Shown here: positions 10,796 through 64,000 of the stretch, piece by piece
Numbering within the stretch: position 1 is the first letter of the stretch
How the letters are laid out: each line of letters opens with the position of its first letter
Origin: Savitreella phatthalungensis
Lineage: Eukaryota
NCBI GenBank assembly: GCA_051599415.1
Contig: AP039696.1
Coordinates: forward strand, 1 to 64,000
Direction: 5' to 3'
Length of the DNA: 64,000 nt
The notes under the pieces: model-generated
Told to the model about the DNA's origin: nothing
The model's input: only the letters and a program-made list of their open reading frames with translations
The model's database searches: none
Translations under genes and position numbers: made by a program

Positions 10796-10880
10796 CCTCA
10801 CCTTGTCTGTTGCCCTCGTATATCGCAAGAATAAGTGCACGTTCGACGTCATTAATTGCATTTTAACTACCGTGGACAGA

Positions 10881-11831
10881 TCAATCGTCAAACCCGGCAA
10901 AGTCAGACGACTCCGCCGGCGGCCTGCGCTCAGTCTGTCGATCCATCTCAACCTGACCAGCCGCGAGGCATGTGATGCGAACGAGCAGTTCTGCCGACGC
11001 AAGCTCGCGCCAATCATCTGTGTGCCATAATTTGAGAACGCCATCACTGCTGCCTGACACTAAATAATGACCCACAGTCGCCAGACTTTTGATTCGTGAC
11101 GCATGACTTCCAATGATGCTGCCAGTCATCGTCGTAGCGTCGATTCGCTCCAGCTGACCATCTTCACGACCGAGCAAGACTGCATCTTTTGAAACTTCGA
11201 TGCAGTGAAGTCTCGAACTCCTGTCATATGAAGCACTGTGGACGACCTTGCCCGCTAGAAAGATTTTCAAGGTAGTGCTGCTGATGACCACATACCTTTC
11301 AACATCCAGCCACCTACAAGCCAGAGGCTCACCGTCGTTGAAAGCATGAGCGGCTGCTTTTTTACCAGTCACAAGATTCCATAACCTCACCTGCTTGTCG
11401 TCTCCGACCGTGATGGCCACTTTTCCAGTCTCGTGAATCGCTAGGCCATTGCATCGTCCGTGTCGCGTCGTCACTCTGACCTGTGCAGTCCAGTCGCCAG
11501 CCCGCCACATCACCAGCTTGTTGGCGTCATCCGCACTGAGCAAATGAGTCGCATTCTCTGTAAAGGCAAGAGCGGTGACGCCGCCGTCATGCTGCAATAA
11601 GCTTCCGAGATCGCGCTTCCTTTTCAGATCGTAAAGGCGGATTACTTCGTCCGCACCACCGGATGCTAGATATCGACCTCGGATCGCCAGAGATTTCACG
11701 GCTGCTGTGTGCGCTTCAACAAGAAACGATTGCTTCAGCGTGCCATCGAGAATATCGAAGCCATGTAATACGTGGTTGTACGATCCAACAACAACGCGCA
11801 GAACAGCACAATTATCGCGTTTTCGCTTCAT
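10881..11831 (-). CDS. MAK11: WD40 protein Mak11/PAK1IP1/Skb15 (60S biogenesis)
   Basis: VVVGSY..VLHG, AH..AVKSLA..RYLASGGADEVIRLYDL.RKRDLGSLLQH, and further WD repeats. Confidence 0.85.
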   Translation of the reverse strand: MKRKRDNCAVLRVVVGSYNHVLHGFDILDGTLKQSFLVEAHTAAVKSLAIRGRYLASGGADEVIRLYDLKRKRDLGSLLQHDGGVTALAFTENATHLLSADDANKLVMWRAGDWTAQVRVTTRHGRCNGLAIHETGKVAITVGDDKQVRLWNLVTGKKAAAHAFNDGEPLACRWLDVERYVVISSTTLKIFLAGKVVHSASYDRSSRLHCIEVSKDAVLLGREDGQLERIDATTMTGSIIGSHASRIKSLATVGHYLVSGSSDGVLKLWHTDDWRELASAELLVRITCLAAGQVEMDRQTERRPPAESSDFAGFDD

Positions 11832-11963: not shown

Positions 11964-13175
11964 TTATTGGTGCTGCTTTTGGTCCAGGCTTCCACTGAGC
12001 ATACACAGAGCTTCAACAGCTTCTCTATCCGCATCAGAAGTCTGCACAGCGGGCGACCGAGGTGGTCCGGCTGCAGGTTCTCGACGAACGCGCGATGCCG
12101 GTCCACCAGTCTCGCGCATGTGACTCAGACCGCCCTTATTGCTGCTGGAGAGAGAGGTCGTGCGAGCCTGCGCTTTCTTAGCGAAAGACATGTTCGTAAA
12201 GCTTGGTGTTCGACTACTGTTGCCAGACAGGCTGCCCAGCGATGGCTTCATCTGGAAGACGCCAGCACTCGACTTGCGACGCATCGGATAAGGACAACCC
12301 GCATGGAAGCTTTGAGCGAACCGGGCTGGAGAGCCGGAGAAAGAAGGTGAGACAATTGCAACACTGGAGGAGAGCTGGGACCTCGATCTCAATCCTTCAG
12401 GTCCAAGCGCTTTCCAGTCTTCTTCATCAGTCTCGGACTCGTCACCTTCCTCTAAATCGAGTGGGTCCACATCGATATCCTCGTCCTCGGGCGGTTGACC
12501 GCTCATTGACAGAGCGGGAGAGAACATGAAGTCCGCAGAATAGGAGGTGCCGAGTATAGACGGGGTCATGGAAGGACGCTTGCCAGCTGACATGGCCATC
12601 GAACCTCGAGAGGGTGCGGTCTCTGGTGTAAAGACCGCGTTGAGGGGCTGACCGCGCACGTTTCCCTCAAGCAAGTTCCATCTGCCCCATCCTACCTTTT
12701 CGAAGAGGACGCCCTGCTTCAATTCAAGAGCCTTGACAACCAGCCGACGTCCTCGAACCGGTGGAATAGTACCGAAATGAGGGTCCGCTTTTGCTAGGGA
12801 AGCTGCGATGTGTCGAGCGGCGAGAGCGCCGTACTGCCGGAAAAGCGCCGGCAAAAACCGCTCTGCCAGGATTTGCGGATCAAGTACAATGTTTCCGTCG
12901 GAGTCAACCACGTTGTAGGATTCCTCTATGTCGCGCCGGCCGCTTGCATCGATGCCCTCCATCTCCAGGTCATCTGTCTCATCTTCACTGCCATTACGCA
13001 TCTGTTCTGATTGTTGCACACCCGGTGAGATAGACCCAGGAGGAACCATTCTGGGGCGAGTGCCTCCTGAGCTTGAGAATCTGCCTAGCGCAGGCATAGT
13101 GCGACCTCCATTTGTCGAAATACCCAGACCGACGCCCTTGCCTGGTGTCGATGACGCGCCTTGAGCTTCAGACAT
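11964..13175 (-). CDS. STB3: Stb3-family Sin3-binding transcription regulator
   Basis: LP....G.LA.RHI...RRLVVKALE..FEKVGWGRW domain, TDEEDW..LG...LR motif, and C-terminal EAVEAL helix. Confidence 0.85.
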   Translation of the reverse strand: MSEAQGASSTPGKGVGLGISTNGGRTMPALGRFSSSGGTRPRMVPPGSISPGVQQSEQMRNGSEDETDDLEMEGIDASGRRDIEESYNVVDSDGNIVLDPQILAERFLPALFRQYGALAARHIAASLAKADPHFGTIPPVRGRRLVVKALELKQGVLFEKVGWGRWNLLEGNVRGQPLNAVFTPETAPSRGSMAMSAGKRPSMTPSILGTSYSADFMFSPALSMSGQPPEDEDIDVDPLDLEEGDESETDEEDWKALGPEGLRSRSQLSSSVAIVSPSFSGSPARFAQSFHAGCPYPMRRKSSAGVFQMKPSLGSLSGNSSRTPSFTNMSFAKKAQARTTSLSSSNKGGLSHMRETGGPASRVRREPAAGPPRSPAVQTSDADREAVEALCMLSGSLDQKQHQ

Positions 13176-43200: not shown

Positions 43201-43935
43201 ACTGAGACCACGTTATACTACCTCAATCTGGCATTATTTGAACATGCGGAAGGTCAGACGCTACAGGCACTCGCTCACATTCAGCATGCTTTGACACAGT
43301 GGCGACTAGTCTACGGCGTTGCGCATGAGCATCCAGATCTTCTGACAACTCTCAACAACGTGGCTGTCATGCTGCAGTCGATCAAAGAGTATGAAGCTTC
43401 GCTTGCCTGGTTCGAGCGGGCTCGTGAGCTTTGCGTATCGCTCTACGGAGATTCATCAATCCACTGTGCTTCGATTTATTTCCAGCTCGCCCAGGCGCTC
43501 ACTCTTGTGGGTGACCACAATCGCTCGGTCAAGCGCATGCGAGACGCCTACCAAATTTTCCTCAAAGAGCGCGGTGCCGATGATACAACCACGAAGGAGG
43601 CTGAATCCTGGCTATCCCAGCTCACTTCGAACGCAGTAGCTGTCGGACGACTGCAGCGCCAAAGTACTCATCTTACTGGGCGACTCGGGGGCACAGCTGG
43701 CCGACAGGCATTGCAGCCTACTCCTGGGCAAGCCCTCAACGGTACCCATCCAGGGCCCGGGCCTGCTGCAGCAGCAGCTGACAAAGGCTTGTCAGATGGC
43801 TCTGCGTCGATCGGCAGTCGAGGCGACATGGCTGTTGATGACTTGGTCGCGTACATCAACGGCAGTGCATCGGCTACTGAAAACAGCCAGACTAGCAAAG
43901 CGGGCAAGAAAAAGGCCAACAAGCGACGTGCATGA
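40243..43935 (+). CDS. CLU1: Clustered mitochondria protein Clu1/Tif31
   Basis: SGWNP.P..RRLRGDLFY, RDWNEEIQ, AQSIVPGIF, HRRGINLRYLG, and C-terminal TPRs. Confidence 0.95.
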   Translation: MSQGRSTESSANTVQGAVQPQENQQARKAEEEAASSDVSAVMQITITLPHTDSKPLSIQVGGSETVNDIRQCITDVPSTAIYTAFHFEHEGKVLDDLTEVGSLSLRDQSELVLVEDPYNERDARIHLARMVDLLSGNKDVGPGGKTLYDCLRHDSTAVPLLSARVAEPTTKLSEMHVSVPKCLRSISLSGWNPAPAQRRLRGDLFYILVETLEGDLFHISATNAGFHLNGSGSTTFDPLPTSETHHSLVRLLRSLSANFRANFEHLLTYMGSREPLLTTPLVTARPAQAWIGKPDDVQISALAVQRPWLERGFENNDSLRDWNEEIQNTRELPVTSLTERVSRARLLHKTLFDYSLAAIEGAELLVKGELSALNPGENAAAQMYIYSNIFFSQGLDGVGTFHREGGDFAAHKAVALDVNGVRTISAVDVDGLSVLGTCIVDIAGKRVVAQSIVPGIFKQRPEDESQIVYGGVDGRDVVATDAGCEALFAKAASALHLRRHAVFETKDDVRKELELSIETKGLAGADGRFYVLDLYTLTPVDIRFLESECIERNETEYDLTAGETAHFGTDKYPHRFVNFRQEFVQGYWELKLNEYVRDKIREDQQEEPTNDTEEKRKVDLSGFNLSFNPDTFLLRVPTDESSVDKAARERDEILVREMSAHLWEAVIPQFVADVSDSRLQCPIDGESLCKLLHRRGINLRYLGAVAELAEKKGASISKARTLLSIAQRSIISRAVKHVLRQAARDVPYGLMSDLYAHLLNGVFNSATTAHAADSLERLYQTKVAAFRWLHEEFVIRIRSTAKQLYRYDLPQDWAEEQRGLPLLREICLQLGIKIQARAYFTSQPNNTSEQEVVGPLVQTRTKKGKAFKESSAPKATSKLRTGMFEAADILDIIPRVKESSPRSGIAEEALEVGRLHIAEGQKDLGIELVRESISLHEQIYGVLHPETARAYNQAAMIWSNLDQPALALDFAQKAVIVSERTVGLDNTETTLYYLNLALFEHAEGQTLQALAHIQHALTQWRLVYGVAHEHPDLLTTLNNVAVMLQSIKEYEASLAWFERARELCVSLYGDSSIHCASIYFQLAQALTLVGDHNRSVKRMRDAYQIFLKERGADDTTTKEAESWLSQLTSNAVAVGRLQRQSTHLTGRLGGTAGRQALQPTPGQALNGTHPGPGPAAAAADKGLSDGSASIGSRGDMAVDDLVAYINGSASATENSQTSKAGKKKANKRRA

Positions 43936-44610: not shown

Positions 44611-45557
44611 CGTGCCGGTATGTGGGTGTGAGAATGTGTGCCTGGTGTGGCTACGGACGTGTCTGCGATCGAGTTCCTGGCCAATCTCTTGATCGAAGGG
44701 GTAGATCTATTACTTAGAGGCGAGCAAGAAGATGAAGATGCTCCTGGACTTTCCTTTGTCTTCACCTCGCTCGATACCCTAAAGTCAGATGTTGTATAAT
44801 CGAACGTAGAATCGAACGATCGACTGGTGCAATGAATGAACGAATCGATGAATGATGATGATCCGAATGAATGGACGGGTGAATGAGTGAGTAAGCGTGC
44901 GTGATCCCGCTTTGGTGTGATGGTCACCGAACGGTCATTCGTAGGTTGACTTGATTTCGGGCGGTGCATATGAGGACAGCTTAGTTGAGCAATGATGACA
45001 CTCTGGCCATGCTGGCAATGAATCGCAGGCGCCTGCATCTTGAGATGCATAATTTAAACGTTCATTTTGTTGCACAGAAATCTGCATTAATAGATAAATT
45101 ATATCTATGCTTCAATCAGAACTTTTGAATTTTTACCGGATTTAGAATGATCGATCTAGAGTTTGAGCTATAAATCAGCAATACATTAAACTCATACGTA
45201 CGACCCCGTACGTGTGCGTACATGCAGTAATGTACGTATATGCAAGCAATTGGATCAATGAATTCGAGAAGTCTGATCGAGTGTCTTCATCGATCATGCA
45301 TATAGAAAATTGATCAAGGTTGATTGCGTATCAACATGTGGAGGGAATAGGTTGGATGCACGTACGTACGTGTACTGACCTACACCATGCATCATTAAAT
45401 TTCGAATTCTTCGATCGATCATGCTCCACGAATAGATTCGAACTTTTGATTTTAATGCACATGCATGCAACGCAGCCTGGGTAAAGTCCGTATCCAGTCT
45501 TGCATGATCTCCAATACAAAATAAAAATCTGGCTTTCTCCAGAACACTACAGCAAAA

Positions 45558-45647: not shown

Positions 45648-45904
45648 ATTCCGAATCTCACATCGTATGCTTAATCGGAGCTCGAAGCCTATAAGGAAAG
45701 ATATTAGGAGTAGAATTACCGGCAAACGCACCTACACGCGACACACCAAGAAGAAAAAAAGGTACACGGGTATAGAGCACTGCTGCAACAGATTAGAGTA
45801 GCCGTTGCACTGGTCTCGTCGGTCTCGCTGCTGTTGAGCTTCAACTAGGTAGAAAGTCCTTGAATTGGGAAGCTCAGATATACGGTCACAGAGCTTTTCT
45901 CAGC

Positions 45905-55323: not shown

Positions 55324-56067
55324 ATGAGTGGGCGCGCAGCAAATGTCAAGCTCGTACTGCTTGGTAAGCTTTCTGCTCCCCTTAGATGTGACGAGCCCCA
55401 CTGACTGTTATCACAGGGGAGGCCGCGGTAGGCAAATCTAGCCTATGCTTGCGCTTCGTGCAATCCGACTTCCAGGAAAATAAGGAGCCGACCGTAAGAA
55501 GACTTGAGAAAGGAATGAACGAGGACTGACCAGTAGATTGGCGCCGCTTTCCTCACGCAGAAGTGCCAAATCGAGAATAGAACTGTCAAGTTCGAAATTT
55601 GGGACACCGCTGGCCAGGAGCGCTTTCACTCTCTCGCCCCAATGTACTATCGCAATGCGCAAGCTGCTGTTGTGGTCTATGATATTACGAAGGCATCTTC
55701 GCTGGAGAAGGCCAAATCATGGGTGAAGGAATTGCAGCGCCAGGCGTCGCAGAACATCGTCATCTGCTTGGCTGGCAACAAACTCGACCTTGCTGACGAG
55801 GCAGGCGATGATGCTGAAGGCGCTGGAGAAATCTCACATCGTAGGCAGGTGCCATTTGAAGAGGGCAAGGCATATGCAGATGAGCAGAATCTCATCTTCT
55901 TCGAGACCTCGGCGAAGACAGGAGAAGGCGTTCAGGACGTCTTTGAGAACATCGCACGTGCTATTCCCGAGGAGGCCCCTGTCAGAAGCAGTGCCGGCCA
56001 ACGTGAAGAGCGGGTCAACCTTAATGCCGCCCAGGGAGAAACGCGGCAAAACGCATGCGCGTGCTGA
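55324..56067 (+). CDS. VPS21: Rab5-family GTPase, Vps21-like; exons 55324-55363, 55417-55493, 55537-56067
   Basis: Manual splicing of two GT-AG introns gives [14 protein letters not shown]...[14 protein letters not shown]...[18 protein letters not shown]...GNKLD...ETSAK...CAC. Confidence 0.9.
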
Positions 56068-56864: not shown

Positions 56865-57776
56865 ATGTCGGCCGCAAACAAGATCACCAAGGTCACTCAG
56901 GACCCAATTGAGCTCACCGTAGCTCAGGCGCTCTACGATCTCGAGACGTCGGTTGCAGATCTCAAGGCGGACCTTCGTCCTCTTCAGATCTCTGCTGCTC
57001 GTGAGGTCGATGTTGGCGCCGGCAAGAAAGCGATCGTTGTCTTCGTGCCTGTACCACAGCTCAAGTCTTTCCACAAGATCCAGCAGCGCTTGACACGCGA
57101 ACTCGAGAAGAAGTTCTCCGATCGTCACGTCGTCTTCGTTGCTCAGCGCCGAATTCTGAAGAAGCCTGGACGTCGCAGCCGTACCACACAGAAGCGTCCG
57201 CGTTCGCGCACGCTGACTGCAGTCCATGAGAAGATCCTCGAGGACCTCGTCTTCCCAACGGAAATCGTCGGCAAGCGCACCCGCAACCTCGTTGACGGTC
57301 GCAAAGTTCAGAAGGTGTACGTTCTCCTCCCCCCGATCCCTGCACTGACATCCTCGAATTGCTCCGTGACCTCTTTTTGCTCTTTCTGCGCGATGCCCTG
57401 CTCGGTCTTATCATACACCGGCCTCGCACTGACGGAATGTGCGAGGGAGTTGTCGAATTGAGTACTGCGTCATTCTGTATTGAACTCGACATCCTCCCCG
57501 CACAAGGATACGCCCTTGCACTTTGCGGGTTACGTCTTCTTTGTTCCGTCACCGAGATGTCGCTATGGCAAGCATCGAGGCCTCTTGGACGATTGACCAG
57601 GACATCTCTGCTCTTCTGTTCCGTGTGATCATGCCATGCTGACTTCAATTTCTAGCTTCCTCGACCAGAAGGACGCCTCGACCGTGGATTACAAGCTCGA
57701 CTCGTTCTCCGCCGTCTACAACAAGCTGACGGGCAAGACGGTTGTGTTCGAGTTCCCCGCCGTTCAGCAGGAGTAA
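56865..57776 (+). CDS. RPS7: 40S ribosomal protein eS7; exons 56865-57316, 57656-57776
   Basis: [12 protein letters not shown] and [13 protein letters not shown]. The intron GTACGT...GCTGAC...TAG joins in frame to FLDQKD...[23 protein letters not shown]. Confidence 0.97.
57391..57577 (+). ncRNA. Candidate structured cis-regulatory RNA in the RPS7 intron
   Basis: Five mutually compatible stems plus an 8-bp loop pseudoknot, found by eye (see findings). Function not established. Confidence 0.5.
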
Positions 57777-63151: not shown

Positions 63152-64000
63152 ATGACAGGCGGGCTTGTGCAAAGCTATAGCGATTCGCCGCTGCGGCCGC
63201 CTACACAAGCAGGCCCAGCGCATGAAGCTTCATCATCTCAGGCACCACAGCAACAGTTGACAGGCACGGCCGAGGCAGCAAGACCTGCGCAAGCTCCTCC
63301 AACCTCCGCTGTTGCCAATGTATCCTCAGCCAAGAACGACTCTATCAGCAACAACCCATACACACCAGCATCAGCACCTGTAGGCCATGCATATAGCGGT
63401 GCATCTGGCCATGCGTCGATTGCGATTAACGGTGCTCTACCGAACGCTGCCGCTCCACAGATCCCCGGGCAACCATACGACCCGGTCGGGCAAGGACTCT
63501 CTAACCACTTTTCAACACCCCCGAAAGCTGATACAGGCCTACCGCCTCCACCGCCACGCTCTGGATCGAGGCCATCGACACCGAGTCGTGCAACCTCTTC
63601 CGTCAGCGGCAAATACGTCGCCGACCCGAGCATTTCTGGCAGTAACGCAGATATGTATGGGCACGCAATACCGGTGCAGCAGCAATCGCAGCCTGCTTAC
63701 GGCGGATATGATGCTCAGCAGGCATACGGTCAGCAGGCAGCATACGGCCAGCCTCAGGCGTACGGCCAAGCGCAGGCATATGGCCAGGTGCAGGCTACAG
63801 GAGGTGCTAACCTGATCTCTCCGGCCGGGTACGCTCAAAATCCATTGGCGACTGGTCACACGTCTTCTGGCGGGCGCGATACGCCTGGAACTGCCGGGTA
63901 CGGCGGTACCGGTGGTGGCGGGCTATCGGCCGTGGATGGTTTCAACGAAGTGCTCGGAGGAGACAAGACTGCAACCGAATACGCCAAGGAAGTCTACTCA
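63152..64000 (+). CDS. Low-complexity Pro/Gln/Gly/Tyr-rich hypothetical protein, truncated by the window end
   Basis: Manual translation from ATG 63152 (MTGGLVQSYSDSPLRPP...) stays open for 283 codons to base 64000. Absent from the ORF track because it has no stop. Confidence 0.8.
   Translation, partial: MTGGLVQSYSDSPLRPPTQAGPAHEASSSQAPQQQLTGTAEAARPAQAPPTSAVANVSSAKNDSISNNPYTPASAPVGHAYSGASGHASIAINGALPNAAAPQIPGQPYDPVGQGLSNHFSTPPKADTGLPPPPPRSGSRPSTPSRATSSVSGKYVADPSISGSNADMYGHAIPVQQQSQPAYGGYDAQQAYGQQAAYGQPQAYGQAQAYGQVQATGGANLISPAGYAQNPLATGHTSSGGRDTPGTAGYGGTGGGGLSAVDGFNEVLGGDKTATEYAKEVYS

Follow-up and report, generated by a model that had tools for sequence, protein, structure and literature searches.

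Does the long intron of the eS7 (RPS7) gene of the fungus Savitreella phatthalungensis carry a defined RNA structure, and what might such a structure do to splicing? The gene lies on contig AP039696.1 (assembly GCA_051599415.1), in the stretch of 64,000 nucleotides (nt) formed by positions 1 to 64,000, hereafter called the window, whose numbering is used throughout; all features are on the + strand unless the other strand is named. A preliminary description of the intron (57317–57655, 339 nt) had proposed a pseudoknotted multi-hairpin RNA serving either as a feedback splicing switch or as a hosted non-coding RNA (ncRNA). The computational follow-up points instead to a Y-shaped domain of 122 nt (57430–57551) with a predicted fold more stable than that of its shuffled counterparts, and the reading that we prefer, tentatively and at somewhat less than even confidence, is that of a lineage-specific structured insert with a passive, structural effect on splicing.

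Predicted fold and stability of the Y domain

The Y domain is built from three helical elements, P1, P2 and P3, with a minimum free energy (MFE) of -52.1 kcal/mol and 46 predicted pairs, five of them G-U. The stem of the Y is P1, a helix of 9 base pairs (bp) in which the 5′ strand UGACGGAAU (57430–57438) pairs with the 3′ strand GUUCCGUCA (57543–57551), thereby closing both hairpins. P2 is a long hairpin of 21 bp with an 11-nt loop (57439–57503), made up of the helices GUGCG/CGCAC, GGGAG/CUCCC, UGUCGA/UCGACA and AGUAC/GUAUU, with bulges of only 1–2 nt. The second arm, P3 (57504–57541), is weaker and contains AAGGA/UUCUU, ACG/CGU and CUUGCA/UGCGGG at pair probabilities (P) of 0.6–0.83. Folding was compared in three contexts, namely the intron alone, the segment 57200–57720 and the whole precursor messenger RNA (pre-mRNA). 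P2 is predicted with P 0.99–1.0 and P1 with P 0.94–0.96 in all three (0.99 for P1 when 57385–57585 was folded), so that both helices are independent of context (P 0.94–1.0), while the pairings that flank them shift from one context to another.

This fold departs from the architecture of the preliminary description, all nine of whose named stem pairs, UGACGGAA/UUCCGUCA included, are perfect complements lying where it placed them. The pseudoknotted arrangement of five stems is not favoured, and the supposed pseudoknot UGACGGAA/UUCCGUCA is predicted as a nested helix (P 0.94–0.99). When 57385–57585 was folded, a pair probability of 0.0 was obtained for hairpin 1 (CCUCGCAC/GUGCGAGG, 57422–57429/57439–57446), for the outer stem CUCGGU/ACCGAG and for the CCCGCA/UGCGGG register of hairpin 3. 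The other outer stem, CGAUGC/GCAUCG, survives in part, being predicted with P 0.63 in the core folded alone and absent from the intron and pre-mRNA folds. The strand GUGCGAGG has two possible partners, CCUCGCAC or CCCCGCAC; it pairs downstream in the prediction, and hairpin 1 therefore does not form. For the segment 57385–57585 the energies are as follows: the MFE is -75.7 kcal/mol, the best fold with hairpin 1 forced reaches -69.6 kcal/mol, and the nested stems as originally drawn give -52.3 kcal/mol, to which the pseudoknot, as an isolated duplex, would bring -10.7 kcal/mol, in a comparison that is approximate because the energy of an isolated duplex is added to constrained nested folds. A second UUCCGU, which had been offered as an alternative partner, is indeed present at 57619–57624; as a 6-mer it is at chance level. 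Inverted pairs number 31 in 471 nt, and chance alone is expected to yield many six-base complements.

Comparison with shuffled sequences localizes the stability to the Y domain. For the whole intron the excess is marginal (z-score -1.88, 5 of 100 shuffles as good; z -2.0 in a second run), for the core (57385–57585) it amounts to z -3.6 (0/200 shuffles; z -3.9 in a second run), and for the Y domain it reaches z -6.04, with none of 300 shuffles, which average -31.8 ± 3.4 kcal/mol, attaining the native energy. P2 alone (57438–57504) folds at -32.3 kcal/mol (z -6.15, 0/300 shuffles) and P1 together with P3, in the absence of P2, gives z -3.05 (1/300); P3 taken alone (z -1.29, 32/300) is by itself not above chance. 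Once the Y domain is deleted, the rest of the intron folds no better than shuffled sequence (z +1.04, 169 of 200 shuffles as good), as is the case for its 5′ part (z +0.97, 251/300) and its 3′ part (z -0.27, 113/300). The finding is thereby reduced to one module of 122 nt, with the outer stems and the zipper-like flanks at chance level. The original claim that the intron contains structured RNA is supported, in that structure in excess of shuffled controls is present. In the core, the sense strand departs further from its shuffles than the antisense strand (z -3.87 against -2.65), the latter also beating them, less strongly.

Within the window, the segment 57401–57601 (z -4.3) ranks second among 319 non-overlapping + strand segments of 201 nt, whose z-scores have a mean of -0.10 and a standard deviation of 1.12. 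We judge the fold to be real and unusual at roughly the 1–5% level for a region of this size. The intron also holds more repeated 7-mers than expected, both direct (5.4 expected and 12 present, a number equalled or exceeded in 38 of 1000 shuffles) and inverted (2.5 expected and 8 present; 21 of 1000 shuffles), an excess of the two kinds of words that is the pattern local duplication would leave.

Rank 1 among the 319 segments is held by a palindromic intergenic stretch at 45201 (z -5.2; z -5.6 over 301 nt). This stretch (45150–45450, +), between one open reading frame (ORF) that ends at 45050 and another that starts at 45860, is A+T-rich, with many palindromes of the ACGUACGU/GUACGUAC type and GAUCGAUC words, and has the look of palindromic DNA of low complexity, not of a defined RNA. 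On the scale of 67 nt, the strongest hairpin of the window is found at 63873–63939 (+, -37.1 kcal/mol), and other strong ones at 12053–12119 (both strands), 43714–43780 (-) and 10874–10940 (-).

Splice signals and decoy branch sites

The intron opens with the 5′ splice site GUACGU (57317–57322) and ends in UAG. Its branch site is presumed, from its position, to be GCUGAC (57638–57643), which would put the branch A at 57642 and leave 13 nt to the 3′ splice site. Two further hexamers in the intron read ACUGAC, which is the exact branch hexamer of both introns of the neighbouring VPS21-like gene and from which GCUGAC differs by one base. One of these decoys (57344–57349) is placed 21 nt past the 5′ splice site hexamer, shows a pairing that depends on context and is followed by no AG for 94 nt. 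With GUACGU, a spacer of 21 nt and ACUGAC, the initial 33 nt of the intron resemble the front of an ordinary short intron that lacks its AG.

The other decoy (57428–57433) lies partly within P1. Its last four bases, the would-be branch A at 57432 included, are paired in all three contexts, with a probability of being unpaired of 0.00 at 57431–57433 and 0.05–0.21 at 57430. Two cryptic AGs follow 13 and 17 nt past A57432 (57444–57445 and 57448–57449), and here G57445 and both bases of the second AG have a probability of being unpaired of 0.00 in every context, A57444 being unpaired. The spacing of 13 nt between the decoy A and the first cryptic AG is the one found between the branch A of GCUGAC and the 3′ splice site. 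Splicing to either cryptic AG would lead to an in-frame stop codon, as read from the sequence, and read-through of the unspliced transcript leads to the stop codon already pointed out at 57459–57461, where the ORF ends (57461).

Pairings outside the Y domain were considered as well. The helix CCUCGA/UCGAGG (57352–57357/57575–57580) has 6 bp and P 0.89–0.91 in the intron and 57200–57720 folds and is lost in the pre-mRNA fold. A zipper stem is defined, in the passages on ribosomal protein (RP) gene introns of Rangan et al. 2025 (PMC12350175), by at least 6 bp and total linkers of 42–85 nt to the 5′ splice site and the branch point; the linkers of CCUCGA/UCGAGG (29 + 57 = 86 nt) are one above this limit. 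Zipper formation or compaction as a selected property of the intron was rejected, the relevant distances being no shorter than in shuffles (75/100 as short) and the flanks at chance. The tail of exon 1 (57279–57310), just ahead of the 5′ splice site, shows three complements to 57517–57556: a perfect one of 8 nt and a pair of 11-nt ones at 91%. Such exon–intron pairing is attributed to chance, since the best duplex (-31.3 kcal/mol, against -27.0 ± 3.0 for shuffles) is equalled by 49 of 500 shuffles, and forcing it costs +5.4 kcal/mol.

The eS7 gene and the corresponding introns of other fungi

The host gene encodes the fungal ribosomal protein eS7, as both exons match the Pfam profile Ribosomal_S7e. 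Exon 1 (56865–57316, the coding sequence starting at 56865) comprises 150 codons and the first 2 nt of a Val codon and covers profile positions 4–148 of 182 (E 7.8e-66); exon 2 (57656–57776, stop codon included) covers positions 150–182 (E 3.3e-10). The single spliceosomal intron is in phase 2, dividing the Val codon after its second base, and the profile runs unbroken over the junction (148 to 150). The size and borders that had been assigned to the intron are confirmed by this continuity together with GUACGU, GCUGAC and the final UAG. Likewise, the introns of 53 nt (55364–55416) and 43 nt (55494–55536) in the adjacent Rab5/VPS21-like gene of the Ras family can be read directly in the sequence. 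Two contigs assembled from reads of the same species cover parts of the intron: X4 (57326–57493) carries one difference from the window, and X3 (57274–57429) is identical and runs unspliced through the 5′ splice site, although its status as RNA is a guess. Read contigs from presumed relatives (four runs, 80% likeness) contain exon sequence only and end before the intron.

To place the intron in a broader setting, metagenomes were scanned with exon 1, and 80 loci, out of 268 relatives, were retained (L001–L080; top protein identity 78%), with no close genomic relative among them. Of the 80, 77 contain both exon parts. A GT..AG intron at the same position and phase is present in 24 of these 77, absent from 52, and in one (L069) the gap is unclear. 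That 24 of 77 diverse fungal loci share the intron indicates that its position is old. The closest loci (L001–L006, L009 and L012) are intronless and transcript-like, L009 ending in poly(A), and many of the 80 have further upstream introns that the host gene lacks. All but one of the 24 introns measure 25–134 nt, the remaining one (L047) 338 nt, with a median of about 60; the 339-nt intron is thus about six-fold the usual length for its position, and the description of it as oversized holds beyond its own neighbourhood.

No excess structure was detected in any of the 23 distinct same-position introns of these distant fungi (z -0.98 to +1.53), and a comparison of the host intron with the 64-kilobase (kb) window and the 80 loci returned nothing beyond chance matches of 11–16 nt. 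The long intron of L047 (677–1014 of that locus) is rich in A+T and shows neither sequence similarity to the host intron nor excess structure (z +1.2 and +1.06) nor an Rfam match, and a search of Rfam with five loci bearing longer same-position introns gave 0 matches. Enlargement of the eS7 intron has occurred more than once, in L047 and in the host.

Known relatives and readings of the domain

The view that the intron matches no known RNA family is borne out by Rfam 15, which gives 0 matches at the gathering score over the whole 64-kb window. With E values up to 10 allowed for 57250–57720, the sole hit is RsmY on the minus strand (E 1.5; 12 bits against the 57 needed). There is no Rfam match to ribosomal RNA (rRNA) in the 64-kb window. 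A transfer RNA (tRNA) or short interspersed nuclear element (SINE) origin was rejected, as ARAGORN finds no tRNA in the window. The two classes of small nucleolar RNA (snoRNA) were searched for by their motifs. For box C/D, a C box RUGAUGA and a D box CUGA 50–200 nt apart with a terminal stem were sought, and 0 such pairs were found on either strand of the intron: the C-like words of the sense strand (57625–57631 and 57636–57642, one mismatch each) are downstream of or overlap every CUGA, and CUGA is absent from the minus strand. For box H/ACA the search was for two hairpins with guide pockets, separated by an H box ANANNA and followed by an ACA 3 nt from the 3′ end. In the intron, the sense strand has 0 ANANNA words, those on the minus strand being antisense to the host gene, and P2 has no guide pocket. 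These motifs exclude a canonical snoRNA on the sense strand.

The closest known kind is the structured long introns of yeast RP genes, a likeness that concerns predicted structure only. In the passages of Rangan et al. 2025 (PMC12350175) that deal with them, long introns of Saccharomyces cerevisiae RP genes such as RPL28 and RPS17B are described with zipper stems, long stems and multiway junctions, and cryptic 3′ splice sites of the consensus type are described as more protected (53 of 183, 29.0%). The eS7 intron resembles the introns of those passages (PMC12350175) in being a long RP intron of an intron-poor fungus, with long stems and a three-way junction that set it apart from coding sequence, and would share with them the proposed roles in compaction and cryptic-site protection. 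It differs from them in that the host belongs to a different subphylum, and in having no sequence relation to them and a fold known from prediction alone; moreover, its zipper-like flanking helices are no better than shuffles, and the internal domain alone stands out.

Other RP genes offer further points of comparison. The motifs rpl7, rpl7-l8-s3, rps0, rps2, rps20 and rpl30 have been reported in fungi by Li and Breaker 2017 (PMC5640933), whose main text describes rpl7-l8-s3 as two long hairpins located mostly in RP-gene introns. These motifs were set by conservation in 9 to 26 species, and the eS7 domain is compared with them by the descriptions in that main text alone; 'rps7' occurs 0 times there, supplementary tables aside. 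Besides RPS7B of S. cerevisiae, which has been probed (PMC12350175), no fungal eS7/RPS7 intron structure was found in the portions of the literature covered, the supplements of PMC5640933 and PMC8476143 aside. Autoregulatory pre-mRNA structures are described for RPL30, RPS14B, RPS9 and RPL22B of yeast in the corresponding passages of a review (PMC8047918). The likeness of the eS7 intron to these four lies in a structured RNA within the RP gene's own intron, with alternative pairings available. Elements of the RPL30 and RPS14B type reportedly bind their own protein, sit at or near splice signals and usually mimic the rRNA site. The eS7 domain differs from the RPL30, RPS14B and RPL22B type in overlapping only a decoy branch site, away from the splice signals used.

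The reading that we prefer can now be set out. An ancient eS7 intron would have been enlarged in this lineage, the enlargement carrying the self-contained domain of 122 nt and having arisen perhaps by local duplication or palindrome formation. The Y domain would fold on its own as the pre-mRNA is made, looping 122 nt out of the intron; the folded domain would bury the consensus decoy ACUGAC at 57428–57433 and the AGs just behind it, and the spliceosome would then use the distal GCUGAC and UAG to give a productive eS7 messenger RNA (mRNA). We infer that the fold forms in the cell, that masking of the decoy matters and that the extra sequence came by insertion or duplication.

Several observations weigh against this preference. 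The domain does not lie far outside the genome's own hairpin background: segments of 67 nt with -30.7 kcal/mol or lower occur at 9 + strand places in 64 kb, P2 included, which corresponds to a P2-like hairpin about once per 8 kb of G+C-rich DNA, and any 339-nt stretch has a chance of ~4–5% of holding one. Its rarity is not overwhelming, because the region was picked after a scan of 64 kb. The three CTRAC motifs in the intron are no significant excess, as 103 of 1000 shuffles have at least that number, and the graph distance of 22 that separates the 5′ splice site from the branch site in the MFE fold is matched or undercut by 75 of 100 shuffles. The L047 intron is spliceable by its signals and unstructured, so that a long intron at this position needs no such fold. 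Insertion as the origin of the enlargement is conjecture, because neither terminal inverted repeats nor a second copy (64 kb, 80 loci) are seen. Finally, a neutral palindrome would be expected to look alike, and the compared fungi are too distant for conservation within the host's own genus to be judged.

The last point leads to the likeliest of the rival explanations, although we hold it to be rather unlikely: the domain may be neutral debris without consequence, left by an inverted duplication or a palindromic insertion that a tolerant intron recently received. Such an origin is consistent with equally stable 67-nt hairpins at 9 places per strand in sequence of all kinds (64 kb), with the enrichment of both direct and inverted short repeats in the intron, with the lack of excess structure in the 23 distinct introns at the same position and with an antisense core that also beats shuffles (z -2.65). 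It accounts less well for a domain that is not one simple palindrome, P1 and P3 without P2 retaining z -3.05 (1/300) and the three helices being nested, for a sense strand that folds better than the antisense one and for a region placed second of 319. A related possibility, and the least probable of those weighed here, is that a non-autonomous mobile element, of the miniature inverted-repeat transposable element (MITE) kind or introner-like, landed in the old intron. About 290 nt of extra sequence lie between two CTGAC copies (57345–57349 and 57639–57643, flanking 57350–57638), and introner-like elements are described as having stable secondary structure. MITEs are marked by several genomic copies, terminal inverted repeats and a target-site duplication; against such an origin, no second copy is found in the 64-kb window or the 80 loci, where the best chance matches are of 12–14 nt, no terminal inverted repeats are visible at 57350 or 57638, and the intron position itself is old.

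Two further explanations would give the domain an active role. In one of them, which we consider improbable, the Y fold and the hairpin 1 fold would be the two states of a regulated switch, with eS7 or another factor directing the transcript to retention or decoy use and hence to mRNA decay. The two alternative partners of GUGCGAGG (CCUCGCAC or CCCCGCAC) would permit it, the forced hairpin 1 fold being 6.1 kcal/mol above the MFE, as would the decoy branch sites of perfect consensus, one of them with AGs 13 and 17 nt behind it. The alternative fold, however, has a probability of about 0 in the ensemble, and 107 nt separate the Y domain from the 5′ splice site hexamer, 86 nt from GCUGAC. The autoregulatory elements of yeast RP genes are said to abut splice signals, unlike the eS7 Y domain. 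In addition, GAG is a poor 3′ splice site and both cryptic sites are GAG, and the pairing of the exon tail with the intron is at chance (49/500 shuffles; +5.4 kcal/mol). Several yeast RP genes are known, from passages of the review PMC8047918, to regulate themselves through their introns; the eS7/RPS7 passages of that review mention no eS7 autoregulation. A more specific proposal, in which the Y domain would act as sensor in a structure-gated switch of unproductive eS7 splicing, is a shade less probable again. The folded domain would hide ACUGAC (57428–57433) and its AGs, sending splicing to the distal site and to productive mRNA; an excess of free eS7, temperature or growth state would open it through the CCUCGCAC/GUGCGAGG hairpin; and the opened domain would allow decoy use or retention, a premature stop and degradation of the transcript. 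If true, the switch would be the first intronic feedback element for eS7. The remaining explanation, to which we give little credence, is a stable intron-hosted ncRNA of an undescribed kind, which would be freed from the lariat and shielded by its closed three-way structure. The oversized intron of a ribosome-related gene, where the other introns seen measure 43 and 53 nt, would suit it, as would a compact, closed domain of high predicted stability. The setting recalls the introns of intron-poor fungi that host snoRNAs, RPL7 with snR39/59 and NOG2 with snR191 in the main text of Lim et al. 2021 (PMC8476143), with which the eS7 intron shares an oversized, retained intron in a ribosome-related gene. 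In contrast to them, it has on its sense strand neither a C/D pair 50–200 nt apart nor an H box, and no Rfam snoRNA match at E up to 10; P2 lacks a guide pocket, no protein-binding motif can be named, and the domain is absent from the 23 same-position introns, most of them too short to hold it. As no Rfam match exists, a hosted ncRNA would be new.

Intron-poor fungi keep few introns, many of them in RP genes, and the reason is an open question. The answers known so far lie in the snoRNAs that kept introns host and, for budding yeast, in structures by which splicing is tuned. Should the domain prove not to be conserved, it would be a palindromic insert that mimics a designed RNA, and a caution for scans of this kind. 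A very stable, lineage-specific domain in the eS7 intron would extend the picture of structured RP introns from yeast to a distant group, and its buried consensus branch site would provide a simple, testable case of RNA structure guiding the choice of a branch site.

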